Under the pieces are notes generated by a model. It worked only from the letters and a program-made list of their open reading frames with translations, did not search any database and was not told where the DNA came from. DNA of 64,000 nucleotides from an uncultured Planctomycetales bacterium (GTDB lineage: Bacteria; Omnitrophota; Gorgyraeia; Zapsychrales; Zapsychraceae): assembly GCA_964535935.1 (NCBI GenBank), contig CAZHWM010000021.1, positions 3,903-67,902 of the forward strand, in the 5' to 3' direction. The translations under genes and the position numbers were made by a program. How positions within the stretch are numbered: the first letter of the stretch is position 1; each line of letters starts with the position of its first letter. Positions 13,151 through 60,497 of this stretch are shown here, piece after piece.

Positions 13151-13223
13151 GCCGAGATAGCTCAGCAGGTAGAGCGAAGGACTGAAAATCCTTGCGTCCC
13201 CAGTTCGATTCTGGGTCTCGGCA
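13151..13223 (+). tRNA. tRNA-Phe (anticodon GAA)
   Basis: Cloverleaf read by hand. Acceptor GCCGAGA/TCTCGGC, D-arm GCTC..GAGC, anticodon stem AAGGA/TCCTT with loop CTGAAAA, T-arm CCCAG-TTCGATT-CTGGG, discriminator A. CCA is not encoded. Confidence 0.9.
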
Positions 13224-13247: not shown

Positions 13248-13319
13248 GCCGACGTAGCTCAGGGGTAGAGCAATGCTCTCGTAAAGCATGGGTCGTGCGT
13301 TCAATTCGCACCGTCGGCT
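13248..13319 (+). tRNA. tRNA-Thr (anticodon CGT)
   Basis: Acceptor GCCGACG/CGTCGGC, D-arm GCTC..GAGC, anticodon stem ATGCT/AGCAT with loop CTCGTAA, T-arm GTGCG-TTCAATT-CGCAC, discriminator T. Confidence 0.9.
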
Positions 13320-46848: not shown

Positions 46849-48660
46849 ATGAAAACACCATCTTTTTTTAGAAAGCTTAGTCATTTAATCCCACGTAGGA
46901 TATGGGTTCAGATATTTTTGCTATTAACAATATTTGTAGTTATTCCCTTGATTATTTTAGGATATTTGTTGATTCACACCAGTCAAAATGCCGTAAAATC
47001 TGCTGTTCTGCAGGATTATAAAGAGATTGTGTTTCACGCATCTAGAGAAGTGGAGGAACATTTTTCTAGTATCAAAAGGGCGTTTTTAATGACCGCCTCT
47101 ATATTAGGAACATTAAATATAAGTAAGTGGCAACAAGAATCAGTGTTGGTGGAGTTATCTTTGAGATATCCTATTTTTAAAAAGATCTCTGCATTTGGTA
47201 TTAATGGAGAAGAGATTTCTACTTCAGAGTTAGGTAAAAATTTTGAAGATATAGTTAACACAGAAGCCTTTAAGAACGCCTCTTCAGGTAAGTTTTTTGT
47301 CTCTGAGGTTAGATTGACTTCAGAGCATTTGCCAGTATTAACTATGGCAGCACCGTTACATAATATGGATGAAATTTTAGGAGTTCTTATTGCAGAGGTA
47401 GATTTAAGAGGAATATGGGATATAGTAGATAGTATAAAGATTGGTTTGAGTGGCCATGCATATTTGGTGGATTCAGATGGAAAAGTCATAGCAAGGCCTG
47501 ATAAAAAAAAGGTGTTATTAAATGGTAATTTTGTATATCCAGAAATTATGAGGTTGGTTCTAAAAGGAGAAATCGGTAGTCAGAAATATATAACATCGAC
47601 AGGAGAAAGTTTTTTGGTAGCATATGCTCCTATACATTCTCTTCATTGTGGGTTGGTTATTCTACACCCAGAGCGAGAGGCATATGCATTTCTTGAGATT
47701 ATGAAGATACAGTCATGGATACTTATATTATTAAGTGTCATAGCTGCTGTTGCTATAAGTTGGTTAATTTCTAGATTAATGAGCAGACCTATTTATACAT
47801 TTATAGAAGGGACTCATAGATTGGCACGAGGAGGATTTGACTATCCTTTTCGTATCCGACGTAGAGATGATATAGGCAGATTGTTATATTCTTTAAATAG
47901 GTTAGCTGTAAAGATGAGAAAAGATAGAGAGCTTGAAAAGATGTCTGCCATAGGTAAGGTGGCTACAGCAATAGCCCATGAATTGAAGAATTCTTTACTT
48001 TTAATAGAGACTTTTATTAGGTTGATACCAGAAAGACATAAAGATAAGGGATTTGTCAGAGAATTTTCAGAGATAGTCCCCAATGAACTCGATTCTTGGA
48101 ATACTATGCTTAGAAATATAGTTGAATATGGTTCGATGTACAAACTGTCTTTGACAGAAACTCATTTAAATTCTCTTATTCGTGACATTATTGCCTTATC
48201 TTCACAAAAGATAAGACAGGAAGGCATACATCTTAAGGTTACTATGCAGAAAGATATTCCTGTGATTATGGTAGATGTAGATAAATTAAAAAGGGCATTG
48301 CTAAATCTTTTGATTAATTCTATTGAAGCGGCAGGCAAAGAAGGGACTATTATTATAATAACCACGCGAACAAAATATGTGTCCGGGGAATACGCAGAGA
48401 TGAGGATAACTAATACAGGTGGGGGTATGAATATTAGTGATTTAAAAGAGATGTTTGAACCATTTTATAGTACCAAAAAAGATGGATTTGGTTTAGGGCT
48501 ATCTATTAGTAAAGAAATTATAGATCGACATGGTGGAGAGATAGATGCGGTTAGTGATATGGGGACAGTGACATTTATTGTTAGGATTCCTTCCAAATCA
48601 ACAATAGCTGGTATGTATAGGATGGTGAATAGAGAGTATAAACAGAAGAGGGATATGTAA
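46849..48660 (+). CDS. sensor histidine kinase with extracytoplasmic Cache-like domain and HAMP
   Basis: 603 aa. Two TM helices flank a ~250-aa periplasmic domain. HAMP-like segment, H-box AIAHELKNSL, N-box LLNLLINSIEA, G-box FGLGLSISK. Confidence 0.85.
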   Translation: MKTPSFFRKLSHLIPRRIWVQIFLLLTIFVVIPLIILGYLLIHTSQNAVKSAVLQDYKEIVFHASREVEEHFSSIKRAFLMTASILGTLNISKWQQESVLVELSLRYPIFKKISAFGINGEEISTSELGKNFEDIVNTEAFKNASSGKFFVSEVRLTSEHLPVLTMAAPLHNMDEILGVLIAEVDLRGIWDIVDSIKIGLSGHAYLVDSDGKVIARPDKKKVLLNGNFVYPEIMRLVLKGEIGSQKYITSTGESFLVAYAPIHSLHCGLVILHPEREAYAFLEIMKIQSWILILLSVIAAVAISWLISRLMSRPIYTFIEGTHRLARGGFDYPFRIRRRDDIGRLLYSLNRLAVKMRKDRELEKMSAIGKVATAIAHELKNSLLLIETFIRLIPERHKDKGFVREFSEIVPNELDSWNTMLRNIVEYGSMYKLSLTETHLNSLIRDIIALSSQKIRQEGIHLKVTMQKDIPVIMVDVDKLKRALLNLLINSIEAAGKEGTIIIITTRTKYVSGEYAEMRITNTGGGMNISDLKEMFEPFYSTKKDGFGLGLSISKEIIDRHGGEIDAVSDMGTVTFIVRIPSKSTIAGMYRMVNREYKQKRDM

Positions 48661-48674
48661 AGAGGAGAGATAAT

Positions 48675-49403
48675 ATGATATCAGACAGAATTGTAGTTAT
48701 AGACGATGATCCCCGTGTTATAAAAAGTATAAAATTGGTGTTAAGGAAATATGAGATAAAGGAATTTTTGGATAGTGAAAAGGCTTTGGCTTTTTTCAAA
48801 AAACCCAGAGATATAAAAATCGTTCTTTTAGATGTGATGATGCCGGGAATAGATGGACTTAGTCTACTTAGTGAGATAAAACGATATAATAAGGATATTT
48901 CTGTTATTATAATGACGGGCTATGGGACAAAAGAGATAATCTTAGATGCTTTACGCTCTCATGCAGATGATTTTATAGAGAAGCCGTTTAATTTTGAAGA
49001 TTTAATAGAACGAATAGACAGACTTTTACAGGAAAAACGATATTCTTTTAAGGAAAGAGAGGATGATAAAGGTAAAATTGATAAGATAAAAAGTTTTATT
49101 CGGAGAAACTATCAACAGGCAACGCTTGATATAATAGCAGAAGAGATGTGTATGAGTAGTAAATATTTAAGCAGGATGTTCAAAAGGAAAAATGGAGATA
49201 GTTTCAGGGATTTTAAGTTAAAAATCAAAATAGCAGAAGCAAAGGCTATGTTAAAGGATACGTCTTTTAATGTAAGTGAGATCGCATTAAAATTAGGCTA
49301 TAAAAATCCAGAATCTTTTATGCGTATCTTTAAACGTATTACAAATTGTACTCCTTTAGAATATCGTGCTAAAATTAGGGCAGAAGAGCATAACTCCTCA
49401 TAA
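48675..49403 (+). CDS. response regulator with AraC-type HTH output (YesN-like)
   Basis: 242 aa, RBS agaggagag. Receiver IVVIDDDP..VLLDVMMPGIDG..EKP. C-terminal AraC/XylS HTH (LGYKNPESFMRIFKRITNCTPLEYR). Confidence 0.9.
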   Translation: MISDRIVVIDDDPRVIKSIKLVLRKYEIKEFLDSEKALAFFKKPRDIKIVLLDVMMPGIDGLSLLSEIKRYNKDISVIIMTGYGTKEIILDALRSHADDFIEKPFNFEDLIERIDRLLQEKRYSFKEREDDKGKIDKIKSFIRRNYQQATLDIIAEEMCMSSKYLSRMFKRKNGDSFRDFKLKIKIAEAKAMLKDTSFNVSEIALKLGYKNPESFMRIFKRITNCTPLEYRAKIRAEEHNSS

Positions 49404-49581
49404 AATGGGATTTTAATTAGTAAGGTAGTATAAAGACAGAAAAAAGTCCTATAAAACCATTCCATTTTTATAAATTTTCCCCTATAAATATAAAATTAGC
49501 CATTGTTTAGATATTATTTTAATAATTTTATTATCTATTATTTATTATTATATTACTTTCTTCAGATCGTCGGAGGAAAGT

Positions 49582-50844
49582 ATGAAAGATTTTTGGTATA
49601 AACAGGAGGATTGTCGTTTGGATATGAGAAATTTTGAAAAAGATTATTCTGTTAAGAGTGTTAGAGAGATTCTTTCTGATTTACAGAAAGAGAAGGAAAG
49701 ATTTAGGCGTAGTGAGACATGGCGTAGGCATGTTTTAGATGCAGCAACGCAGTTTGCAATTATAGCTACATCTCCGGAAGGGGTTATCACTATTTTTAAT
49801 TCTGGGGCAGAGAAGATGTTAGGGTATTCAGCTTTGGAAGTGATAGGTAAACTTAGATTAGAAGATCTCCATGTTGAAGATGAGCTTTTATCGTATGGAA
49901 GAGAATTGAGTAGAGAATTTGGTTATGAGATAAGAGGTTTTGCTGTTTTAACTATAAAACCGCAATGTGAAGGATATGAAGAGAGGGAGTGGACATATGT
50001 AAGGAAGGATGGTAGTCACTTACCAGTCAATTTGATTGTGACAGTAGTACGTAGTGATGCGGGAGAGATTATTGGGTTTTTGTCTGTTGCACAGGATATC
50101 TCAAGGCGAAAAAAGGCGGAGCAGAGACAGATAGAGTTACAGGAGGAATTATTGCGTTCAGAAAAACAACTAACATTAGGTCGCCTTGCTGCAGGGATGG
50201 CACATGAGATAAATAATCCGGCTGCAGCGATTAAGAGTGATTTAAGTATGTTATGGAAACTTGTATCTGCTTTACCAGAATCTCCTCAAAAACAGAAAAT
50301 GCTTAATATTATTGAGCGTGATAGAGAAGCTATCTCCCGTATAGAAAGTATAGTTATAGCAGTAAAAGGTGCGTATCGCCCAGAACAGTGGCATTTTGTG
50401 GATATTAACAAAGAGATAGACCTGCAATTAACTATTTTACATCGTCTATATAAGGGGCGAATAGAAATTGTTAAACAATATGATAATTTACCTCAAATTA
50501 AGGTATATGGCAGCGAAATAGGACAGGCAATATTGAATCTTTTGACTAATGCTATAGAGGCAATAGAAGATGAAGGGAGAATAACTATTACTACTAAAAA
50601 TATGTTAGATAAAATAACAATAGATATAGCTGATACAGGTACAGGGATATCAGAAGATATTCTTCCTCATATATTTGAATCATTTTATACCACAAAAGGG
50701 AAGAGTAAAGGAACAGGTTTAGGACTTTCTATGTCAGCACAGATAGCTAGGCGGCATAAAGGGAGACTATATATATCAAAGAATATTGTTGGTAGGGGGG
50801 CGACTTTTACATTAGAAATATCCAAGGATGCGGAAAATGGATAA
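49582..50844 (+). CDS. cytoplasmic PAS-domain sensor histidine kinase
   Basis: 420 aa, RBS ggagga. PAS region, H-box GMAHEINNPAAAI, N-box LNLLTNAIEA, G-boxes DTGTGI and GTGLGLSMS. Confidence 0.85.
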   Translation: MKDFWYKQEDCRLDMRNFEKDYSVKSVREILSDLQKEKERFRRSETWRRHVLDAATQFAIIATSPEGVITIFNSGAEKMLGYSALEVIGKLRLEDLHVEDELLSYGRELSREFGYEIRGFAVLTIKPQCEGYEEREWTYVRKDGSHLPVNLIVTVVRSDAGEIIGFLSVAQDISRRKKAEQRQIELQEELLRSEKQLTLGRLAAGMAHEINNPAAAIKSDLSMLWKLVSALPESPQKQKMLNIIERDREAISRIESIVIAVKGAYRPEQWHFVDINKEIDLQLTILHRLYKGRIEIVKQYDNLPQIKVYGSEIGQAILNLLTNAIEAIEDEGRITITTKNMLDKITIDIADTGTGISEDILPHIFESFYTTKGKSKGTGLGLSMSAQIARRHKGRLYISKNIVGRGATFTLEISKDAENG

Positions 50845-52588
50845 ATATTCTATCTTAGTTGTAGATGATGATGAGGCAGTAGCAGATTCATTAAGGGATT
50901 CCTTAGAGATGTTGGATATATATAAGGCTACTGTTGTAAATAGTGGTAAGGAAGGAATAGAAGAGGCAAAAAAGAATAGATTTGATGCCTTCTTAGTGGA
51001 TCAAAAGATGCCAGGTATGGCAGGAGTAGAATTTATATCTGAATTGGTAAAGATAATAGATGATCCTCTCATTTATATTATTACGGCAGAAGATGACGGA
51101 GTTGCTCTTGCTGAAGCGGAAAAAGAAGATGAGAGAAGATTGCCTATAAAGAGATATGTGCCCAAACCATGGCCCCCAGGGCTTTTTTCTGTAGATCTAA
51201 GAGAAGATTTGCGAGAGCGTGATTTAAAAAGGAATATGCTTGAACAGATAGAAAAATATTCTTCAGAACAGAAACAGGTTCAACATGCCTTGGATGAGGC
51301 AAATACCAAACTAAAAGAACAGCAGATAGAATCAAAGAGGTTGTTACAAAAGACAGCTAAGAGATATAAGCTTTTAGCAGAGGTATCTCCTGTAGGTATA
51401 TTTTATACTGATGCTGACGGTAGTTGTATTTATGTAAATAAGAGATGGCGAGAGATTACAGGGATTATTCCACGTATGGCATTAGGAGAAAAATGGACTA
51501 AGTGGCTACATCCAGAGGATAGAAAGAGAGTAGAAGAAGAATGGAACAGATGTTTGAGAGAAGGGATTTCTTTTAAGATGGAATTTAGGTTTCAGTCTTC
51601 AGAGGGAAGGGAAAGATGGGTGTTAGGGCAGACAAAGGCGGATTTTGGTAGTAATAAAGTTATATTGGGGCATGTTGGGACTATTACAGATATTACTGAT
51701 AGGAAGAAAGCAGAAGAGGCCCTTTGTAGATATAGTGAAAATTTAGAGGAGTTGGTAGCAGAACGTACAAAAGAGGCATATGAAGCTAAAATAAAGGCAG
51801 AAAAGGCCAATCAGGCTAAGACAGAATTTTTGGCTAATATGGGACATGAATTAAGGACGCCTATGCATGGGATACTGAGTTTTTCAAAATTTGGTTTAGA
51901 GAAGAGTAAATCAGAAGGATTGGAGGTTTTACATCGTTATTTTAAAGAAATACATGAGAGTGGACAAAGGTTGCTTTCTTTATTAAACGATTTGCTTGAT
52001 TCTGAAAAGTTAGAGGCAGGTAAGGTTAAATATGAATTTAAGGAACATGATTTAATTAATGTAATCAAAAACGTTGTATCAGAATTCAGTACCTTGTTGA
52101 AAGAAAAGAATATTAATATTAAGTTAGATCTACCTAATAAAAAATGTATTGCAGTGATAGATAAGATTAGAATGATGCAGGTTGTAAGGAATTTATTGTC
52201 TAATGCTGTCAAGTTTTCCTTAGATGGAGGAGAGGTTGTAATTACGTTAAAAGATAAAGGTGGCATTTTTATATTGTCTATAGCTGATAGAGGTATAGGA
52301 ATTCCAGAGAATGAGTTAAATCAGATATTTGACAAATTTGTTCAGAGTAGTAGTTCTAGGACAGGTGCAGGTGGTACAGGGTTGGGACTTTCTATATGTC
52401 GACAGATAGTCTGGGCGCATTATGGAGAGATTTGGGCAGAGAATAGATATGGTGGGGGAGCGATATTTTATGTAGTTATTCCTAACAATCGTTCTGGGAG
52501 GAAAAAGTTGGGACAGTTGTTGGTGGAAAACGGTATTATAACACATCAGCAGTTAGCGGAATTTTTGAAAAAGCAAAGAGAAGATTAG
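50828..52588 (+). CDS. receiver-PAS-histidine kinase hybrid with C-terminal MshEN-like tail
   Basis: 586 aa (ATG 50837 is an alternative start). N-terminal receiver ILVVDDDE..FLVDQKMPGMAG..PKP, coiled coil, PAS. H-box GHELRTPMHGI, N-box NLLSNAVKFS, G-box GGTGLGLSICR. Then a 28-aa tail KKLGQLLVENGIITHQQLAEFLKKQRED. Confidence 0.85.
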   Translation: MRKMDKYSILVVDDDEAVADSLRDSLEMLDIYKATVVNSGKEGIEEAKKNRFDAFLVDQKMPGMAGVEFISELVKIIDDPLIYIITAEDDGVALAEAEKEDERRLPIKRYVPKPWPPGLFSVDLREDLRERDLKRNMLEQIEKYSSEQKQVQHALDEANTKLKEQQIESKRLLQKTAKRYKLLAEVSPVGIFYTDADGSCIYVNKRWREITGIIPRMALGEKWTKWLHPEDRKRVEEEWNRCLREGISFKMEFRFQSSEGRERWVLGQTKADFGSNKVILGHVGTITDITDRKKAEEALCRYSENLEELVAERTKEAYEAKIKAEKANQAKTEFLANMGHELRTPMHGILSFSKFGLEKSKSEGLEVLHRYFKEIHESGQRLLSLLNDLLDSEKLEAGKVKYEFKEHDLINVIKNVVSEFSTLLKEKNINIKLDLPNKKCIAVIDKIRMMQVVRNLLSNAVKFSLDGGEVVITLKDKGGIFILSIADRGIGIPENELNQIFDKFVQSSSSRTGAGGTGLGLSICRQIVWAHYGEIWAENRYGGGAIFYVVIPNNRSGRKKLGQLLVENGIITHQQLAEFLKKQRED

Positions 52589-52621
52589 GAAGATATTTTT
52601 TAAGAGAATGGGAGTAAAGAA

Positions 52622-53713
52622 ATGACAAAATTAGATAGAATGCTTGTGGTAGATGATGACCGAACTAATATAGAGGTGTTGAAAGAGATATTTTGTAATC
52701 GGTTTAATCTTTTAGTGGCTAGATCAGGAGAGGATGCTGTGACCATTGCTAAGGAATGGATTCCGGATATTATTTTATTAGATATCATGATGCCGGGTAT
52801 AGATGGATACGAAACGTGTCGCAGAATGAGGGCAATAGAAGGGTTAAAGTATTCTAAGATAATACTTGTTTCAGCAAAAGGGATGTTAGAGGATAGATTG
52901 AAGGGATATAAGGTAGGTGCTGATGATTATATAATGAAGCCGTTTGATGATGAAGAAATAAAGGCCAAAATAGAGGTGTATTCTCATTTAAAACATATAG
53001 AAGAAGTGAATAGATTGAAGAACGATCTGCTTATGCTTTTTTCCCATGAGACTTGTACACCACTTAATACTATTTTAGGTTTTTCTGAATTGTTAAAAAA
53101 ACGAAAGGAAGATCCTCAGGCATCAGAAAGATGTATGAAGTGTGTTGAGTGGGCACATATGATAGAAGAATCAGGAAAGGATTTATTAACATTTGTTAAG
53201 AAGACATTATTTTTGTGTGATTTGCAAAAAGGATATGAACTTTCTATTGAGCCTTGTTCTATGTCTGATATAATAACAGATGCAGTTGCAGATGCTAGGA
53301 GTAATAGTTTTAATACAGAGGTGTCTATTATATTCGTTAATAAGATTAGCAGGAAGATTTATTTAGATTCGAATCTATTTTGCAGGGCGATTTCTTATGT
53401 TATAGCGAATGCTATAAAGTTTTCTCCGGAAGGTGCTACAGTCTCTATTTTTTCTGAGGTTAAAAATGATAGATGTATTGTAAGTATTTCAGATCAAGGA
53501 GAAGGAATAAACGATGAAGATAAAGATAGAATATTTGAGTCGTTTTCTGTTCAGGATGTATGTAGACATTCGAAAGGACAAGGATTAAGCCTTGCTATAG
53601 CCAGAAGAATAGCACGGTTGCATGGGGGAGAGCTTTCTGTGCATAATAATGAAGAAAAAGGCGCGTGTTTTATATTTGATATTCCATTAAAGATATCATC
53701 AGGGAGTAATTAG
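52622..53713 (+). CDS. receiver-histidine kinase fusion protein
   Basis: 363 aa, RBS gggag. Receiver MLVVDDDR..ILLDIMMPGIDG..MKP. H-box-like FSHETCTPLNTILGF. ATPase region SDQGEGI and GQGLSLAIARR. Confidence 0.8.
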   Translation: MTKLDRMLVVDDDRTNIEVLKEIFCNRFNLLVARSGEDAVTIAKEWIPDIILLDIMMPGIDGYETCRRMRAIEGLKYSKIILVSAKGMLEDRLKGYKVGADDYIMKPFDDEEIKAKIEVYSHLKHIEEVNRLKNDLLMLFSHETCTPLNTILGFSELLKKRKEDPQASERCMKCVEWAHMIEESGKDLLTFVKKTLFLCDLQKGYELSIEPCSMSDIITDAVADARSNSFNTEVSIIFVNKISRKIYLDSNLFCRAISYVIANAIKFSPEGATVSIFSEVKNDRCIVSISDQGEGINDEDKDRIFESFSVQDVCRHSKGQGLSLAIARRIARLHGGELSVHNNEEKGACFIFDIPLKISSGSN

Positions 53714-53795
53714 TGGTGTAAATGTGGGAGAGTAAGGATATGGCGGTAGGAAGGATATCTTTAATAAAGTCTTTTTAAGAAAGGAGGGACGATAT

Positions 53796-53960
53796 ATGAA
53801 GAAATATAAATGTCCTGTTTGTTCTTATATATATGATCCAAAAGTAGGCGATCCAGATTCTGGTATAAAGGCAGGTGTGGCATTTGAAGATATCCCTGAT
53901 GATTGGGTATGTCCTGAATGTGGGGCATCAAAAAGCGAATTTGAACTTATAGAAGAATAA
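53796..53960 (+). CDS. rubredoxin
   Basis: Not in the ORF track (54 aa). RBS aaggaggg lies 8 nt upstream. It translates as [54 protein letters not shown], with the two CxxC knuckles (CPVC, CPEC) and the classic rubredoxin consensus. Confidence 0.9.
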
Positions 53961-53964
53961 ATTT

Positions 53965-55146
53965 TTATTTTCGATAAACATATGTGAGAGAACTATTAGT
54001 TTTGATGTGATTAACATTTATGTTTGTTGTCGGTCTTTGGAGGAGATAACCTTGTCCTGCGTCTACGTGAGAATTAATTACTGTTTGCAATTCTTTTTTT
54101 GTCTCTATCCCTTCAGCGATACATAATATATTATTTTCTTTACAAAAAGCTACTAAGAATTTGATAAGACTTTTTTTATATATATTTTTGTTGCTTTCTG
54201 CGATGATATGCCGGTCTATTTTTATCATTTCAGGCATGATTTCTACAATAGAATCTAAACTTGCATACCCTCCTCCTACATCATCAATAGCAAATTTAAA
54301 CCCTAGATTTCTATATCTCTTTAATTTGTTGTAGAATAAATCAAAATCTTTTACCGCAGAACGTTCAGTTATTTCAAGAACAGTATTCTCTATAGGTATA
54401 TTAGTGGTGTTAAATATTTCTTTGATTTCCTCAAGAGATGTTCCTTCAATAAGATATGGATCGCAATTAAGGAATAAAGTTTTATCTCGGAGGTTTTTGG
54501 AGGCATATCTTAATGCCTTTTTCCATGATGTTATTTCTAGTTCATGATAGAAACCCAATCGTAAGGCTAACTTAAATAATAATTCAGGGTTTGATAATTT
54601 AGTTGATGTAGGTCTGCTTAATACTTCTAATCCTATCCATTCAAATGTTTTCAGGTTAAATATAGGCTGGAAAAAAGGGGTGATCAACTCTTGATCGACA
54701 ATTCTTCTTATTTCAGATACCAAGTGTTCATTATTTGTATGGAGATAAGGGGTTCTATATGTTTGACTACGCCGTATAACCGCCTCCATTCTTGCTATAA
54801 GTTCTTCACATTCAAAAGGTTTAGTAATGTAATCATCTGCGCCAAGGTATAATCCTTCAATTATATCTTCAGATAACGCCCTAGCACTAAGTATGATGAT
54901 TGGGATATGTGAACTTTTGTCACTATTTTTTAATTTTTTGCATAATTTGAAACCGTCAGTATCTGGTAATGAAATATCTAATAAAATAAGGTCTATTTGT
55001 GTAGATATTTGTTTACTAGCTTCTCTTCCTGAATATGCAAAATCCACTTCATATCCTCTAGTTGATAGTAACATACGTAATGTATTTACCAAGGATATAT
55101 TATCTTCTATTAAAAGTATTTTTTTATTCGAAGTAGACTTTCTCAT
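53965..55146 (-). CDS. response regulator with EAL-domain c-di-GMP phosphodiesterase output
   Basis: 393 aa. Receiver ILLIEDN..ILLDISLPDTDG..TKP. EAL-domain blocks FQPIF, LEITERSAV, FAIDDVGGGYASL, IKIDRHII, CIAEGIETKKE and GQGYLLQRP. Confidence 0.9.
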   Translation of the reverse strand: MRKSTSNKKILLIEDNISLVNTLRMLLSTRGYEVDFAYSGREASKQISTQIDLILLDISLPDTDGFKLCKKLKNSDKSSHIPIIILSARALSEDIIEGLYLGADDYITKPFECEELIARMEAVIRRSQTYRTPYLHTNNEHLVSEIRRIVDQELITPFFQPIFNLKTFEWIGLEVLSRPTSTKLSNPELLFKLALRLGFYHELEITSWKKALRYASKNLRDKTLFLNCDPYLIEGTSLEEIKEIFNTTNIPIENTVLEITERSAVKDFDLFYNKLKRYRNLGFKFAIDDVGGGYASLDSIVEIMPEMIKIDRHIIAESNKNIYKKSLIKFLVAFCKENNILCIAEGIETKKELQTVINSHVDAGQGYLLQRPTTNINVNHIKTNSSLTYVYRK

Positions 55147-55328: not shown

Positions 55329-56924
55329 ATGGATATGAAGGAAATAGGAGATTTAGTTTCTAGATATGAACATGCCGTTACCAATTCAGAGAAAGAAACG
55401 TCTTCAATGTTGCAGGAGATTATAGAGTTTGCAAGATCTTATCCTGTAGAATTACGTAAGATTTTAAGGGCATATCCCTGTTTGTTGAACCGTCCTTCAA
55501 TAGAAGATTATATAGCAGAGTATTCATCTGTTCTTGGAGAGGATATTGCAAAAGGACTTGTTGGAGATATAAAACAATTAGCACAGGAATTAATATCTCG
55601 CGGTAAAAAGAAAGTTGTGTTGTTTAATGCCACTTATACTGCGGGTGGTGTAGCTGAGATGATGCCTCGATTAGGGCATATTTTAAGTCTTGTTGGTATT
55701 GATTTAGAATGGCAGATGATACGGCCGTCTACCGCTTCGTTTTATGATGTAACAAAAAAGATGCATGATATTATTCAGGGTGCGAATGAGGAATTGACCA
55801 AACAGGAATGGGCAATATTAGAACAGGTTGGGAGAGAAAATTTTGAGTTATTTTCTTCTATTTTTTATGATGAAGAGGTTTGTGCGGTGTTTTTTGAGGA
55901 TCCACAGGTAGTTGGCTTGATGAGGTATGCGCTCGCGCAAAGGTTGAAGGGTAAGTTAAGAAAGGATATTTTGTATAGTTTTCGTTTGCATATAGATGTG
56001 AGTGGCATTAAGACCCATCATACAGGTGCTATGGCTATATGGTCGTGGATACGTGATGCAATCAGGCAGTTGTATCCGCATGAAAAGGCTATGTTTCAGC
56101 CTTATTGTGTCCCGGAGGATATGCAGTATGATGGTCGAGTGATAGAGGAGCCGCCCGGGATAGATCCATTAGCTCCGAAAAATCGTCTCATTCTTAAGGA
56201 AGAGATATTTTCTGTTTTGGATAGATTAAAGGTCAAGGAGATGCGAGGCCGCATTATCCCTGTGGATAAGGCCTCTATTGTAATTGGCGCAAGACTTGAT
56301 GGATGGAAAGGTTTGTTTGAGTCATTTCTTGCAGCTCTTCCTATTATTGTTGAAGATAATAATTTGCAGTTGATACTTTTTGGCAATGTTGCTCCTGACG
56401 CACCTGACGGTAGACTTATATATGAACAGATACAGAAGATGTTAGCAACCCCTGAGGCAGGTGCATGCAGGGATAGAGTTTTTTTCGTGGAGTCTCCGGC
56501 AGGTATGGAGGTTGGGGTTTTGTATAGATTGGCTGCTTTAAGTTGTATGCCCTATATAGCTTATTCATTAAAAGAGGGGTATAATTTGATGGTGGTAGAG
56601 GCAGTAATGCAAGGTGCACTTATATTGGTTTCGAATGCAGGAGGATTGCGTCGTTATAAAGAGGCTGGATATAGATGGCTTGTCCCTTTGCCAGAAGGAC
56701 TTGAGCATATAAAAGACCCGTCACATATCGAGCCTGGCCTTAGAAATGAATTAGTGAAAAGGATATCTACTGGGTTAAGGGATTTTATCTCAGCTAGTAA
56801 GGACCCTGCGTTTAGATCGAATTATGAGCAAGAAAGTGTTTATTTAAAAAGACATGCATATATTACTTCTATTCTTCCTATGGCAAGAGATTATCTTAGA
56901 ATTGCTTTGGGGAAGAACGCATAA
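55329..56924 (+). CDS. GT4-family glycosyltransferase, trehalose synthase (TreT)-like, with ~90-aa N-terminal extension
   Basis: 531 aa, RBS aaggggg. From residue ~95, VVLFNATYTAGGVAEMMPRLGHILSLVGIDLEWQMI...FYDVTKKMHDIIQG resembles the TreT N-terminus as I remember it. C-terminal GT-B region with EGYNLMVVEA (E-x7-E-like). Confidence 0.55.
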   Translation: MDMKEIGDLVSRYEHAVTNSEKETSSMLQEIIEFARSYPVELRKILRAYPCLLNRPSIEDYIAEYSSVLGEDIAKGLVGDIKQLAQELISRGKKKVVLFNATYTAGGVAEMMPRLGHILSLVGIDLEWQMIRPSTASFYDVTKKMHDIIQGANEELTKQEWAILEQVGRENFELFSSIFYDEEVCAVFFEDPQVVGLMRYALAQRLKGKLRKDILYSFRLHIDVSGIKTHHTGAMAIWSWIRDAIRQLYPHEKAMFQPYCVPEDMQYDGRVIEEPPGIDPLAPKNRLILKEEIFSVLDRLKVKEMRGRIIPVDKASIVIGARLDGWKGLFESFLAALPIIVEDNNLQLILFGNVAPDAPDGRLIYEQIQKMLATPEAGACRDRVFFVESPAGMEVGVLYRLAALSCMPYIAYSLKEGYNLMVVEAVMQGALILVSNAGGLRRYKEAGYRWLVPLPEGLEHIKDPSHIEPGLRNELVKRISTGLRDFISASKDPAFRSNYEQESVYLKRHAYITSILPMARDYLRIALGKNA

Positions 56925-57006
56925 TATTTATAGACATCCCTAATTTCATATATTTTTTATTTGGCATTAAATAGAGTTCTATATTTGTGTATATAAAATA
57001 TCTGTC

Positions 57007-57041
57007 TTGACATTTGACAAATATATTGCATACTTATTAGT
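57007..57041 (+). promoter_or_regulatory. candidate promoter for the riboswitch-like leader
   Basis: Two overlapping TTGACA hexamers (57007-57012, 57014-57019). The -10 candidates are weak: CATACT (57029-57034) and TATTAG (57036-57041). Confidence 0.3.
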
Positions 57042-57054
57042 AGAGATGTAAGTT

Positions 57055-57190
57055 TGACGATAATGGCAAACCCATCGTAAGGTGGGGGCCCCGTATATAA
57101 TATGTTTGCTGTATACGGGCTCCGGGAACTTCCCGGAGGCAAAGCTATAGGGTCCTTATTTTTAAGGATAGCCTAGCTGCCGAACCAAGC
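57055..57190 (+). promoter_or_regulatory. c-di-GMP-I (GEMM-I)-like riboswitch aptamer candidate with internal insertion
   Basis: GGCAAACC + 6-bp helix CCCAUC/GGUGGG capped by the GNRA loop GUAA (57065-57086). Later GGAGGCAAAGCUAUAGGG-UCCUUA-UUUU-UAAGGA-UAGCCUAGCUGCCGAAC (57135-57185). Closing pairing GGCA/UGCC. The two halves are separated by two extra hairpins (57090-57119, 57120-57138). Confidence 0.5.
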
Positions 57191-57236
57191 TTTATATAGT
57201 AGGTTTATTGCTATGCACAAAGCTATAGTATGAGGC

Positions 57237-57269
57237 AGGCCTGTCCTTATAAAAGGACAGGCCTTTTTT
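57237..57269 (+). terminator. rho-independent terminator (expression platform of the leader)
   Basis: Perfect 10-bp GC-rich stem aggcctgtcc / ggacaggcct, 8-nt loop ttataaaa, then a T-run (57264-57269). It lies 35 nt upstream of the pseudopilin ATG. Confidence 0.85.
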
Positions 57270-57303
57270 GTTGTTAAAGAGGGTTGGGGGGAGGTATTTT
57301 AAT

Positions 57304-57741
57304 ATGCAGTTGGATGTTAGATTAAAAGAATGTCGAGGGATTTCTTTAATTGAGGTTTTACTAAGTGTATTTATTTTGTCAGTTGCAGTGATAGGAGTTA
57401 TTCGCATATATTATTTCGCAGCATATGAGATTAACCTTGCAAGGCATAGTGCCATGGCTGTTAATTTAGCTCAGGCTAGACTTGAGGAACTATTAAATAC
57501 AAAATATAACCATTTAGATACAGCGGATTTTCCTATATCTGAAAATAATGAGGATGGTTTTGTTCTTGATCCTAATGAGAATTTGAATTGTGGTATGGAT
57601 ACGAAACTTTATAGTATAGGGACTGAAGCATATATGGCTGTTGTTACTGTGTGGTGGCAGGAACCGTTCATGGGTGCTCAACGGGATGTGTCCCAGACAT
57701 TACGTACAATAATCACTGATTATGAAGGAAGTGGAGCATGA
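57304..57741 (+). CDS. prepilin-type N-terminal cleavage/methylation domain protein (PilV/GspI-like minor pseudopilin)
   Basis: ATG 57304 after RBS ggggggagg (the track TTG 57268 would overlap the terminator T-run and start only 4 nt after its stem). Class III signal peptide ECRG/ISLIEVLLSVFILSVAVIGV. Confidence 0.8.
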   Translation: MQLDVRLKECRGISLIEVLLSVFILSVAVIGVIRIYYFAAYEINLARHSAMAVNLAQARLEELLNTKYNHLDTADFPISENNEDGFVLDPNENLNCGMDTKLYSIGTEAYMAVVTVWWQEPFMGAQRDVSQTLRTIITDYEGSGA

Positions 57742-58397
57742 ATATGGAAGTTAATCCAATTATTGGAAAAAGTATAAACAATAGAGTTGGTTTTACTTTA
57801 ACTGAATTAATGATAGCAGTCCCACTTGCGGTTGCTATATTGGGACTTACCTTGGGGACATATATTAGTATGGATAAGATGGTCCCAGGTGGTATTGCAC
57901 AGGTGGTTGTTCAATCTTATGGACGGAGTATTTTGGATAGAATAGCACAAGATATACGTTTGGCAACAGAGGCTTACATAGAAGATGCCGGGGATACTCT
58001 TGTGTTAACCATTGATCCGAATGGTACATATGATATGAGTTCGGATGATAGGCATATTGCTTATTATATATCAGGAGAGAAATTATTTTATGATCCTAAT
58101 ATATATGTATCGGGGGATGAGGTTGTATTGTTGGATGGAGTAGGGCATGCGGTGTGGAAAGAAGGGGGAAAACAGATTTTGCCATATTTTCAACGGGATG
58201 ATGAAAGGTGGTATAGATGGCATGATGGTGAATATTTTAAGTGGGGCGGGCACGGCAATGCTTATATGTATGGGGGCAATAATGGCAATATTATAATTAT
58301 ATCTTTTTGTATTCGTAAACATAGTGGAATATTCGCTGATAAGACTTGTAATATGACCACTTCTGTAAAGATGAGAAATACGGATGAGGATATATAG
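57738..58397 (+). CDS. prepilin-type N-terminal cleavage/methylation domain protein (PilW/GspJ-like minor pseudopilin)
   Basis: ATGA overlap with the upstream gene, RBS ggaagtggag. Class III signal peptide NRVG/FTLTELMIAVPLAVAILGL. Confidence 0.75.
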   Translation: MNMEVNPIIGKSINNRVGFTLTELMIAVPLAVAILGLTLGTYISMDKMVPGGIAQVVVQSYGRSILDRIAQDIRLATEAYIEDAGDTLVLTIDPNGTYDMSSDDRHIAYYISGEKLFYDPNIYVSGDEVVLLDGVGHAVWKEGGKQILPYFQRDDERWYRWHDGEYFKWGGHGNAYMYGGNNGNIIIISFCIRKHSGIFADKTCNMTTSVKMRNTDEDI

Positions 58398-58422
58398 CTT
58401 TTATAAGAAAGAGAGGGCTATG

Positions 58423-59943
58423 ATGGACAGAAAAGGTTCTACATTATTGATAGTTTTGAGTGTGATGTCTTTGCTGTCTGTATTAGGTGCTTCTTTGTTA
58501 AAGGTTACAATAAATGATGCAGTAAATGCACGTAGGCAAGTGGATAGTCATAAGGCATTATTTCTTGCTGAGGCAGGATTACAACGTGCAGCATGGTTGA
58601 TAAAACAGGATGATGGTTCTTTAAAGACAAAGGATCATACTGAGAGATTTAGTTTTAAAGATGGCCAGATAGTAGTTAATGATGCAGGTGAGGTTACTAT
58701 TAATATCCATTATTTAGGTAACGATAGGTATAAGGTAACTTCTTCTTCACAATATGGTTCGGTTTCAAAGACATTGTATTCTTTGGATCAGGCAAATGCC
58801 CCTGCTAAGGTATTTGATTATGTTTATTTTATTAATAATTGGGGGTGGTTTTACGGTAGTCCTATCACCTCTTATGGAGACGTGCGATCTAATGGCAGAT
58901 TTGATTTCAAATATGGGCCTACTGTAAACAGCGATATATATGCAGGCAACGAGGTGGGTATTAATGGAACAGTTTATGGTTATGGTAGGCATGAACAGTA
59001 TCAGCATGGCCATTCAGAGACATTGCCTATGCCTAATTTGAATGATTTATCTTATTATAAAAATAATGCTACAGGTACGATTAAAATAGATGGCCATATT
59101 CTAGTTAATGGAGTATTAGGTGATAATTCAGGAGAGAAAGACAATATTGTCCTTATAGGAACACAAAATCATCCTATTGAAATAAATGGGACAGTGGTTA
59201 TAGAAGGCGATGTAGTTGTTTCTGGCTATATTACAGGGCAAGGCGTAATCTATTCAGGGAGGAACATATACGTGCCTAATAATATCATTTATGTTAATCC
59301 ACCTTCAGCGGAACGGCCGGAATATCCAGTAGATGCACCTCCGGATTGGAAAACTGTTGATACATTTGTCGCAGAGAATCAAACCAAAGATTTAGTTGGA
59401 TTTGCTGCAAGCGAAAATATTGTTTTAGGAGACTATACTGCCTCAAAAAATCAATGGATTTTTAATTATTATTTATATTATATGGGGGACGAAGACGTTG
59501 GTATAGATGGTATTCCAGATACAGGAGATGAAGGTGAAGGGGATGGTATATTTGAAGCTCGGTATGAGGACCTTGATGGAGATGGTATAAAAGACGATCA
59601 TTATGTTTTTGCTGATCTGGATACACAGGTAAGTATAACGGATTTTGCTAATGTACCAGCAGGAGTAAAGAAATATTCTGATATAGCTACTAATCCAGAT
59701 ACCTATACACCAGGAGAGACGACAATAGATGGGATATTTTATACAAACCATGCTATAACTGGCAGGCCAGAAGGCGCATGTACTATTAATGGGGCGATTA
59801 TTTCTAAGGATGAAGCTATAGGAATTTCATCTATTGTTATGAATTATGATTGGAGGATTAATTCAAGATATAGTGAAAACGGCAAAAATATAATTGATTT
59901 GCCTTTTGCAAAAAAAGTAACAATATTAAGGTGGTGGGATTAA
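58423..59943 (+). CDS. large PilX/GspK-like pseudopilin-associated protein with acidic Ca-binding-type loops
   Basis: ATG 58423 after gagaggg. N-terminal RKGSTLLIVLSVMSLLSVLGASLL is typical of PilX_N/GspK (no cleavage Gly-Phe). Repetitive beta-rich middle. The segment GDEDVGIDGIPDTGDEGEGDGI...DLDGDGIKDD lies at 59482-59602. Confidence 0.6.
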   Translation: MDRKGSTLLIVLSVMSLLSVLGASLLKVTINDAVNARRQVDSHKALFLAEAGLQRAAWLIKQDDGSLKTKDHTERFSFKDGQIVVNDAGEVTINIHYLGNDRYKVTSSSQYGSVSKTLYSLDQANAPAKVFDYVYFINNWGWFYGSPITSYGDVRSNGRFDFKYGPTVNSDIYAGNEVGINGTVYGYGRHEQYQHGHSETLPMPNLNDLSYYKNNATGTIKIDGHILVNGVLGDNSGEKDNIVLIGTQNHPIEINGTVVIEGDVVVSGYITGQGVIYSGRNIYVPNNIIYVNPPSAERPEYPVDAPPDWKTVDTFVAENQTKDLVGFAASENIVLGDYTASKNQWIFNYYLYYMGDEDVGIDGIPDTGDEGEGDGIFEARYEDLDGDGIKDDHYVFADLDTQVSITDFANVPAGVKKYSDIATNPDTYTPGETTIDGIFYTNHAITGRPEGACTINGAIISKDEAIGISSIVMNYDWRINSRYSENGKNIIDLPFAKKVTILRWWD

Positions 59944-59945
59944 TT

Positions 59946-60497
59946 ATGAAGATATTTAGATTTGTTTTTTTTATTGGGATTTTTTTCTTTTTTCCTGTTT
60001 CTATTTTACATTCTTTTATTATAGATAAAGGTAATATTTCCTCGATGGATACATTAAACTATAATAACCATTCATCATCTACCAAAGATGCTAAACAAAA
60101 GAAAAAACTAATTAAGGAGACTAATCCAGCCTCTGGCAGTAGTGCTACAAAAAGAGATAATAGTTTTCAAGATGCAATATATAAATTACAAAGAGATGCT
60201 ATGTTAAAGGAAAAGAAACGGTTATTACGCCAGTCCGCAGACAGAAGAAATAAGTTGCATTCATATATTAAAACCAATAAACATCCCGATTTAAAATACA
60301 GTTATTTTAATACTTCTCAGAATATAAATAAATCAGTGCGTAGTTACAAGATTGTGAGTCATAAAAAAGAAAAAGATACTTCTAAAGAATTATCAACAGT
60401 TGATAGGATTGCAAATTTTTTGGGATTTATAGTATACATTACGTTTATAGGGGCTATTATAATGTTTTTCGTTAAAGGGGGAAAAACGGCAAAGTGA
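59946..60497 (+). CDS. hypothetical bitopic protein (N-terminal signal/anchor and C-terminal TM), last gene of the pseudopilin operon
   Basis: ATG 59946 after aaggtggtggg. Hydrophobic N-terminus, K/S/N-rich low-complexity middle, C-terminal helix FLGFIVYITFIGAIIMFFV. Confidence 0.4.
   Translation: MKIFRFVFFIGIFFFFPVSILHSFIIDKGNISSMDTLNYNNHSSSTKDAKQKKKLIKETNPASGSSATKRDNSFQDAIYKLQRDAMLKEKKRLLRQSADRRNKLHSYIKTNKHPDLKYSYFNTSQNINKSVRSYKIVSHKKEKDTSKELSTVDRIANFLGFIVYITFIGAIIMFFVKGGKTAK

Follow-up and report, generated by a model that had tools for sequence, protein, structure and literature searches.

The DNA considered here, referred to as the window, is a stretch of 64,000 nucleotides (nt) from an uncultured Planctomycetales bacterium that is placed in the Omnitrophota by the Genome Taxonomy Database (contig CAZHWM010000021.1, positions 3,903 to 67,902 of the forward strand), and the element in question lies in the leader of a small operon of pilin-like genes. 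A non-coding gap of 379 nt (56925-57303) separates a glycosyltransferase-like open reading frame (ORF), which ends at 56924, from the start codon of the first gene of the operon (ATG at 57304), and it holds a promoter-like site, an aptamer interrupted by two inserted hairpins, a linker hairpin and an intrinsic terminator, all on the plus strand. The first gene (57304-57741, plus strand) encodes a 145-amino-acid (aa) pseudopilin with an N-terminal methylation motif (Pfam N_methyl) and is preceded by the ribosome-binding site GGGGGGAGG at 57287-57295, identified from the sequence; the rest of the operon (57738-60497, plus strand) encodes a 219-aa protein with the prepilin-like motif GFTLTELM, a 519-aa PilX-N-like protein and a 188-aa membrane protein, whose gene is followed by hisG. 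Taken as a whole, the locus is probably best explained by a class I cyclic di-GMP (c-di-GMP; GEMM-I) riboswitch with intact ligand recognition, present as a four-way-junction variant of the aptamer, which would act as an off switch on a minor-pilin/PilX-like operon of an Omnitrophota-like bacterium.

The aptamer and its conserved core

The Rfam covariance model of the c-di-GMP-I family (RF01051), searched against the 64-kb window, matches 57055-57184 with 40.1 bits against a gathering score of 35 (E = 2.3e-4), and does so over the full model (positions 1-87), a local-end jump in the middle of the first hairpin bridging 63 nt for 14 model positions. The model of the c-di-GMP-I-GGC family (RF03167) can likewise be aligned with the aptamer over its full length, yet its 35.7 bits fall under the gathering score of 59, which leaves the aptamer outside that family. 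Apart from these two, the Rfam search of the window leader gave no meaningful match to other families, and the class I assignment proposed in an earlier, sequence-only reading of this DNA is borne out down to the positions of the individual features. The leader folds more stably than its dinucleotide shuffles (z = -7.5 for the minimum free energy, MFE), and the whole aptamer, in its variant form, is placed at 57055-57185 by the RF01051 and RF03167 scores and by R1, a covariance model made from four unrelated insertion-type aptamers, which gives the window 57.8 bits.

The 5' strand of P1 (57056-57059, from the structure line of the RF03167 alignment) forms the pairs G57056-C57185, C57058-G57182 and G57059-C57181, and its 3' strand is provided by GCCGAAC (57179-57185), of which C57180 is the equivalent of C92 in the RF01051 and RF03167 alignments. 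The 5' half of the aptamer reads GGCAAAC-CCAUC-GUAA-GGUGG-G (57065-57086) and starts with the equivalent of G20 (57065), followed by the 5' side of a 2-bp stem (57065-57067 in the Rfam alignment; G57066 and C57067, with the partners C57140 and G57139). The distal part of P2 (57071-57086) folds into a 6-bp hairpin capped by a GUAA tetraloop of the GNRA type, and the GGC that follows (57087-57089) is the counterpart of the conserved GAC, its C57089 corresponding to C44 of the C44-G83 pair, as seen by comparison with three related leaders introduced below (L002, L003 and L085). Helices P2 and P3 are linked by AAA (57141-57143), in which A57141 is the A47 equivalent of the Rfam alignment, and the 3' half, GCAAAGCUAUAGGGUCC...GGAUAGCCUAGCUGCCGAAC, ends at 57185. 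P3 itself (57143-57178, from the Rfam alignment and folds) carries a bulged A57170 and G57171, the latter being the G83 equivalent; by the same alignment and folds it has no 11-nt tetraloop receptor, the absence of which is usual in aptamers with GYRA loops (PMC1950547).

The signature nucleotides of the ligand pocket all have counterparts in the window. As the partner of C44 in the Vc2 aptamer we take G83, a presumption that underlies the name of the pair used here. The numbering was derived from a published account in which G20, A47 and C92 are the ligand contacts of Vc2 and the universally conserved interhelical pair is C36-G90 of Vc1, C36 of Vc1 becoming C44 of Vc2 by an offset of 8 nt (PMC4744006). 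Transferred to the window, G20 falls on 57065, C44 on 57089, G45 and C46 on 57139 and 57140, A47 on 57141, G83 on 57171 and C92 on 57180, and all are retained; both nucleotides of C44-G83 are therefore present, as C57089 and as G57171 in the bulged AG of P3. The first hairpin of the class has been described as highly conserved, with stems of 2 and 6 bp, a 3-nt internal loop (AAA/GAC) and a GNRA loop, and no insertion was mentioned (PMC1950547). Each of these elements is found in the window, namely the 2-bp stem (G57066-C57140 and C57067-G57139), AAA opposite GGC, the C57071-G57086 pair and the GUAA loop, so that what the aptamer departs from is the uninterrupted first hairpin and the three-helix architecture; because a 49-nt insertion interrupts this hairpin, it is classed as a variant and not as an ordinary member. 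Judged by its sequence, the element is a genuine class I c-di-GMP riboswitch, for which binding of c-di-GMP is predicted.

Two inserted hairpins in related and environmental aptamers

The insertion (57090-57138) separates C44 from G45 and thereby the conserved GAC/GGC from the GC of GCAAAGC; it begins directly 3' of C44 and ends 2 nt upstream of A47. It consists of hairpin A (57090-57119), in which the MFE fold has 10 bp and the 8 basal pairs are perfect, and hairpin B (57120-57138), a stem of 8-9 bp formed by a perfect inverted repeat of 9 nt and joined without a linker to hairpin A and to G57139. The junction linkers in the window thus measure 0 nt on all three sides, which defines the four-way-junction variant; the Rfam alignment, owing to an artefact of its model, puts 'GGAC' at the 3' end of hairpin B.

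Leaders were fetched for the closest relatives of the 519-aa protein (58-60% protein identity), although those of P0002 and P0005 run off contig ends. The protein has hundreds of homologues, the named ones nearly all from Candidatus Omnitrophota and entitled 'pilus assembly PilX N-terminal domain-containing protein' (PF14341), and the L003 homologues lie within a full type IV pilus cluster (PilC, PilM, PilN, PilO and secretin); GEMM is classically tied to pilus genes (PMC1950547). In L002 (2739-2900), an insert of 82 nt is found at the same site and again forms two hairpins, with stems unrelated to those of the window and near-identical flanks; it does not reach the RF01051 threshold and receives 44.7 bits from R1. 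The leaders of L003 (2222-2317; a canonical c-di-GMP-I aptamer with 58.2 bits) and L085 (713-795; canonical by direct reading) carry no insert, and it is the comparison of L002 and the window with these two that assigns the insertion to C44|G45, closed by the normal 2-bp stem. This stem has a compensatory exchange in L003, where U-A replaces the C-G pair, and hairpin A has one in L142, a leader that is 92% identical to that of the window and has A-U for G57093-C57116; P1 pairing is also kept in L142, where C57185 is replaced by U. When R1 was run on 84 loci from a genome scan and protein look-ups (L001 and L003-L085), only three aptamers were recovered, all canonical, and searches by text pattern for GEMM-I in PilX loci returned mostly noise. 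L085 (880-1195) and L004 (1-280) were also seen to have a non-coding stretch of about 300 nt between the canonical GEMM-I with its terminator and the pseudopilin gene, whose long inverted repeat (GGAGGCTGTCCGAGAA ... TTCTCGGACAGCCTCC) points to another structured element in the leader.

The sequence-only reading had treated the insertion as a feature of this locus, which was right as to its presence and missed that the same architecture recurs, and covaries, in GEMM-I aptamers across metagenomes. A pattern of GGCAAAC-N5-GNRA-N5-GGRC, 38-68 nt, GCAAAGC, 18-48 nt and RCCGA matched at least 119 metagenomic stretches, where a rough estimate predicts only a few by chance, and a pattern scan of viral contigs gave no match. 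The matches listed comprise 106 unique sequences, and in 84 of them the insert is filled by exactly two adjacent hairpins; 15 others are ordinary or tandem aptamers bridged by the pattern, and 7, mostly chance-like, fail the two-hairpin filter. Linkers of 0 nt precede hairpin A in 81 of the 84 listed variants, separate A from B in 67 and follow B in 71. The inserts are more stable than dinucleotide shuffles (mean z = -4.9 for the MFE), only 18% of which pass the two-hairpin filter, and R1 recovers nearly all of the 84 listed loci. Insert lengths occupy the whole range allowed by the pattern among these matches, and L002 demonstrates that longer ones exist. Both GGAC (55) and GGGC (29) are represented among the listed variants.

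In a 93-row alignment to R1, all 18 modelled pairs of the inserted hairpins (9 in each) are changed on both sides, with 95.7% of the cells paired in the helix of hairpin A and 94.8% in that of hairpin B, and the covariation score of the two hairpins is 0.78, whereas shuffles give 0.17 and slid partners no more than 0.12. The pairs of the 2-bp stem are kept as GC in 88 rows and CG in 90, and all six pairs of the distal P2 are altered on both sides across the variant set. Despite an alignment fitted to the structure, the covariation signal for A and B is overwhelming, and many environmental bacteria share the insertion as a recurrent, structurally conserved variant; collection of homologous leaders, as the sequence-only reading had recommended, has thereby yielded both a recurrent insert and covariation in the two hairpins.

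What these figures can carry is limited in several ways. The alignment was fitted to the model structure and holds a few reverse-strand rows, so that its percentages and scores lean high; the metagenome pattern fixed G20, A47 and C92, so that conservation of the contacts within the variant set is not independent evidence; and covariation reflects selection for pairing, which is no demonstration of a positive function of the hairpins. Full-text literature searches returned no description of such an insertion from an incomplete collection, and an earlier account is possible; the four-way-junction architecture is apparently undescribed for the class.

The variants precede genes for pilins, Flp-like pilins, PilM, response regulators, a GAF-HD protein, HD-GYP-like proteins, secretion proteins, a two-partner-secretion protein and outer-membrane proteins, which by comparison with the published regulon are typical of GEMM (PMC1950547). 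Five variant loci (L104, L117 with its ORF from about 9954, L130, L182 and L197) are followed by a gene for a secreted protein of about 500 aa, a signal-peptide family without a Pfam match that has 270 homologues at E < 1e-20, the named ones nearly all from Candidatus Omnitrophota, so that the variant is common among Omnitrophota; its members span a G+C content of 0.42-0.76, which hints at a wider spread. The family gives the impression of secreted proteins that are typical of the phylum and regulated by c-di-GMP. Three further loci (L088, L144 and L194) have small HTH_17 (excisionase-like) ORFs after their four-way-junction aptamers and share similar stems (UCCCACC...GGUGGGA, CUGUUCGCC...). 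On several variant contigs a second GEMM-I aptamer lies in tandem or nearby (L184, 494-594 and 947-1078; L137, 1343-1417 and 1428-1484; and others), and the collected loci contain 21 canonical aptamers in total.

With regard to structure, the abutting hairpins A and B and the 2-bp stem would turn the internal loop of P2 into a perfect four-way junction, in which the helix order would run from the 2-bp stem through AAA, the distal P2, GRC, A and B back to the 2-bp stem. The 2-bp stem and the distal P2 would remain coaxially stacked, as in the solved three-helix RNA, while A and B would stack on each other alongside, with two exchanging strands as in a stacked-X-like form, and such a second coaxial stack side by side with the first would explain why there are two hairpins and never one. 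The insertion may on this basis be a peripheral structural module, similar to an expansion segment, that could tune folding or affinity and leave recognition of c-di-GMP untouched. It is conceivable, as a tentative proposal, that aptamers with the four-way junction make up a widespread subclass that has so far gone undescribed and is common in uncultured lineages, Omnitrophota among them, and that their extra arm has a function of its own; the arm might serve as a brace between P2 and P3 in place of the tetraloop-receptor contact, affect the kinetics of ligand binding and release, or offer a second surface for a protein or ligand. A receptor-like motif was counted in 19 of the 84 listed members by a crude test for CUAA[AG].

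Alternatively, the two hairpins could be a neutral expansion segment that is paired only to avoid interference and has no function, an explanation that is possible but that we would not bet on. Stem and loop sequences are almost free, the length ranges from 38 to at least 82 nt, no loop motif is conserved among the inserted hairpins of the variant set, and the close relatives L003 and L085 do without the insertion, all of which would be expected of such a segment. It accounts less readily for the uniform architecture of two hairpins with zero-length linkers among the matches listed, for the lack of inserts of 10-37 nt among the 115 aptamers in the collected loci (a biased sample), for the persistence of the variant over many divergent lineages, and for the only two fairly conserved pairs in A and B, namely the third pair of A (C-G in 74 of the 93 rows) and the first pair of B (C-G in 75). 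The idea that A and B are in general duplicates of each other or form kissing loops was rejected, as A has 3.4 identities with its own B and 3.3 with permuted partners. A sub-family (L089, L127, L124, L168 and L090) does have A and B as near-duplicates (CCUGMACC-N6-GGUKCAGG), with the order of the hairpins swapped between L089/L127 and L124 and with loops (ACGNNG/NNNCGU) that could form 3-4 kissing pairs. In L002, hairpin B (2816-2856) is longer and contains an asymmetric, purine-rich internal loop (GUGAAA opposite CGGAGUA) that might be a kink-turn-like motif.

The insertion also bears on how the riboswitch is detected. When 20 insertion-type loci were sampled with Rfam, five reached the RF01051 threshold (58.7, 46.7, 38.5, 38.3 and 35.1 bits), five matched RF01051 below it (29.6-34.7 bits), nine were matched only by the GGC model, again below threshold, and L169 gave no match. 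As about a quarter of the sampled members reach the threshold, and L002 was missed altogether, annotation of c-di-GMP regulons is probably incomplete in Omnitrophota and similar uncultured groups, and if the variant is indeed a subclass, censuses based on Rfam would under-count c-di-GMP riboswitches in these phyla.

The expression platform and the direction of the switch

Transcription of the leader may start from a promoter-like site at 57007-57034 (TTGACA and CATACT, 16 nt apart), which was found by consensus scan only, with 10 of 12 matches, and is identical but for one base in L142; the predicted start lies about 15-20 nt before the aptamer. Downstream of the aptamer, an intrinsic terminator occupies 57237-57269, with a 12-bp stem (57237-57248/57253-57264) that includes 7 G-C pairs, an AUAA loop and a T run to 57269. 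Its stem energy is -21.6 kcal/mol, and the stem is kept in L142, where C57258 is changed to U to give a G-U pair. The terminator ends 34 nt before the start codon and has no nucleotide in common with the aptamer; a strong terminator upstream of the pseudopilin genes had been recognised from the sequence alone, with a stem taken to be 10 bp long. Between aptamer and terminator folds a linker hairpin (57189-57236), which is poorly conserved in L142.

Plain MFE folding yields the aptamer, the linker hairpin and the terminator as independent domains and no antiterminator. The 3' arm of the terminator mimics the 3' arm of P3, and hence the 5' arm of the terminator is complementary to the P3 3' arm. 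The putative antiterminator would use the latter (57163-57178) as its 5' strand and 57234-57249 as the partner in a 15-bp helix with two 1-nt bulges, a duplex of -19.5 kcal/mol as compared with -14.2 for P3. If this helix is enforced on a transcript ending at 57250, the fold has -74.4 kcal/mol as opposed to -75.8 for the MFE, a cost of 1.4. The complementarity was assessed by hybridizing the 3' strand of the aptamer with the 5' region of the terminator and comparing the duplex with 300 shuffles, whose means were -8 to -12 kcal/mol for the window, L142 and L002. The energies were -19.9 kcal/mol in the window (reached by 2 of the 300 shuffles), -21.3 in L142 (0) and -19.8 in L002 (0), and since the terminator of L002 differs in sequence, it is the complementarity itself that is conserved. 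Corresponding values for the canonical aptamers of L003 and L085 were -5.9 (88) and -8.5 (87).

From these pairings a transcriptional off switch is somewhat favoured at this locus. With c-di-GMP bound, P1 and P3 would be locked, the 12-bp terminator would form and the operon would be off, whereas without ligand the frayed basal 3' strand of P3 and P1 (57163-57178) would be captured by 57234-57249, including the 5' arm of the terminator, and read-through would follow. For the locus this predicts that c-di-GMP represses the PilX/minor-pilin operon.

The same riboswitch could instead work as an on switch, in which binding of c-di-GMP prevents termination, and we consider this unlikely. It is generally known that c-di-GMP promotes type IV pili in many bacteria, which would suit such a direction. 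In the class, the 3' side of the second hairpin is frequently shared with a terminator, an arrangement that implies on switches (Weinberg 2007, PMC1950547), but the window terminator is a stand-alone, perfect hairpin (57237-57264) without overlap with the aptamer. Moreover, the only strong partner of its 5' arm is the 3' strand of the aptamer, which ligand binding would sequester, and by inspection no complement to this arm lies between aptamer and terminator.

Several observations nevertheless speak against the off switch as drawn. The canonical leaders L003 and L085 lack the antiterminator complementarity, which would make the logic lineage-specific. Once the leader is complete, the fold with the terminator is favoured over that with the antiterminator by about 11 kcal/mol, so that the choice of the antiterminator could only be kinetic, and P3, being a local hairpin, forms before it. 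Both the ligand and the direction of switching are, in addition, deduced from sequence.

The sequence-only reading had taken an exact repeat of an aptamer 11-mer, together with the terminator, as a sign of competing pairings. The repeat is real (CAAAGCTATAG at 57140 and, within the linker hairpin, at 57218-57228), but a role of the second copy as the competing strand was rejected, as 4 of its 11 positions differ in L142, where aptamer and terminator are conserved and the linker hairpin is poorly so; what is conserved instead is the complementarity between P3 and the terminator. The repeat looks like a by-product of a P3-like origin of the platform. AGCUUU (57188-57193), which can pair with either copy of CAAAGCU, was likewise considered as an anti-aptamer strand and dropped, being absent from L002.

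Regarding the neighbourhood of the operon, a signalling cluster lies upstream (46849-55146) and comprises a dCache histidine kinase, a REC-AraC protein, a PAS kinase, a REC-PAS hybrid kinase, a REC-kinase and a divergent REC-EAL protein. The gene for this REC-EAL phosphodiesterase (53965-55146, minus strand), after which comes the TreT-like glycosyltransferase, agrees with the neighbour named earlier in support of c-di-GMP control; of the MshEN-like neighbour named with it nothing was found, as no MshEN/T2SSE_N domain occurs in the scanned ORFs of at least 200 aa between 8.6 and 64 kb of the window. Elsewhere in the window, two adjacent tRNA genes were noted at 13151-13223 and 13248-13319 (69.5 and 67 bits with RF00005).

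Ligand specificity and comparison with known systems

There is no positive evidence that the ligand has changed, and the variant is probably still specific for c-di-GMP. The position of the insertion near the pocket had been taken to suggest an altered pocket or specificity, and whereas the position was correct, the suggested consequence finds no support, as G20, A47, C92 and C44-G83 are retained and the 2-bp closing stem covaries normally. That the insertion remodels the pocket for another ligand, such as 3'3'-cyclic GMP-AMP (cGAMP), cyclic di-AMP or a new one, is accordingly improbable. It would fit the immediate proximity of the insert to C44 and A47, the G that the window has in place of A43 (GGC, not GAC) and the sub-threshold c-di-GMP-I-GGC match; both GGAC and GGGC are, however, found among the listed variants, the same type of operon is found behind orthologous leaders whether or not they carry the insert, and the genes downstream of the variant set are those of a GEMM regulon. 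The change to cGAMP specificity in GEMM-Ib reportedly rests on G20A, which is absent from the window. That the insert is a recent mobile or palindromic element, of the type of miniature inverted-repeat transposable elements or repetitive extragenic palindromes, which has possibly inactivated the riboswitch, is very improbable, for although GGC...GGC encloses the two perfect hairpins of the window, the same site is occupied in 84 other aptamers among the matches listed by two hairpins that are unrelated in sequence and show compensatory changes, the sequences of A and B have no further copies in the leader region, and no Rfam family matches the insert.

Among known systems, the closest are the RF01051 riboswitches, such as Vc2 of Vibrio cholerae and Cd1 of Clostridioides difficile, with which the window shares GGCAAAC, the GNRA-capped 6-bp P2, GAC/GGC, GCAAAGC, the P3 with its bulged AG and UGCCGA, as well as G20, A47, C92 and C44-G83, and also the location in a 5' untranslated region, the pilus-type genes and the intrinsic terminator. 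It differs from them in that the 3' strand of P2 is interrupted at C44|G45 by the 49-nt pair of hairpins, which converts a three-helix RNA into one of five helices with a four-way junction. RF03167 belongs to the same clan and can be aligned in full, but the window has the GCAAAGC of ordinary class I members where the RF03167 consensus has GCGAAG. The 3'3'-cGAMP riboswitches of Geobacter (GEMM-Ib) have the same fold family and an association with pili and extracellular functions; in these, an A at position 20 underlies the change in specificity, and the window, which keeps G20, offers no pointer to cGAMP. The c-di-GMP-II riboswitch upstream of C. difficile pilA1 is a functional analogue, as it combines c-di-GMP, a type IV pilin and a terminator, with an unrelated fold; it is said to be an on switch, whereas the logic of the window would be off.

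The window therefore brings no new ligand or mechanism, and what it adds is a structurally notable expansion beside the pocket of a textbook riboswitch, with consequences for annotation. Orthologous leaders with and without the insert, in front of the same type of operon, make up a natural matched pair for the tuning of second-messenger sensing by peripheral helices. Few riboswitches have been studied as thoroughly as those of class I for c-di-GMP, whose fold of three helices tends to be regarded as invariable; a recurrent five-helix version, whose extra arm enters the backbone between the interhelical C44 and the intercalating A47, marks a permissive, possibly functional site by the pocket. 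As is generally known, the P3 extensions of thiamine pyrophosphate riboswitches and the peripheral domains of cobalamin riboswitches are also lineage-variable helices that lie outside the ligand core and conserve pairing over sequence; compared with these, the variant described here has a constant set of two hairpins, inserted at one point of the backbone immediately beside the pocket.

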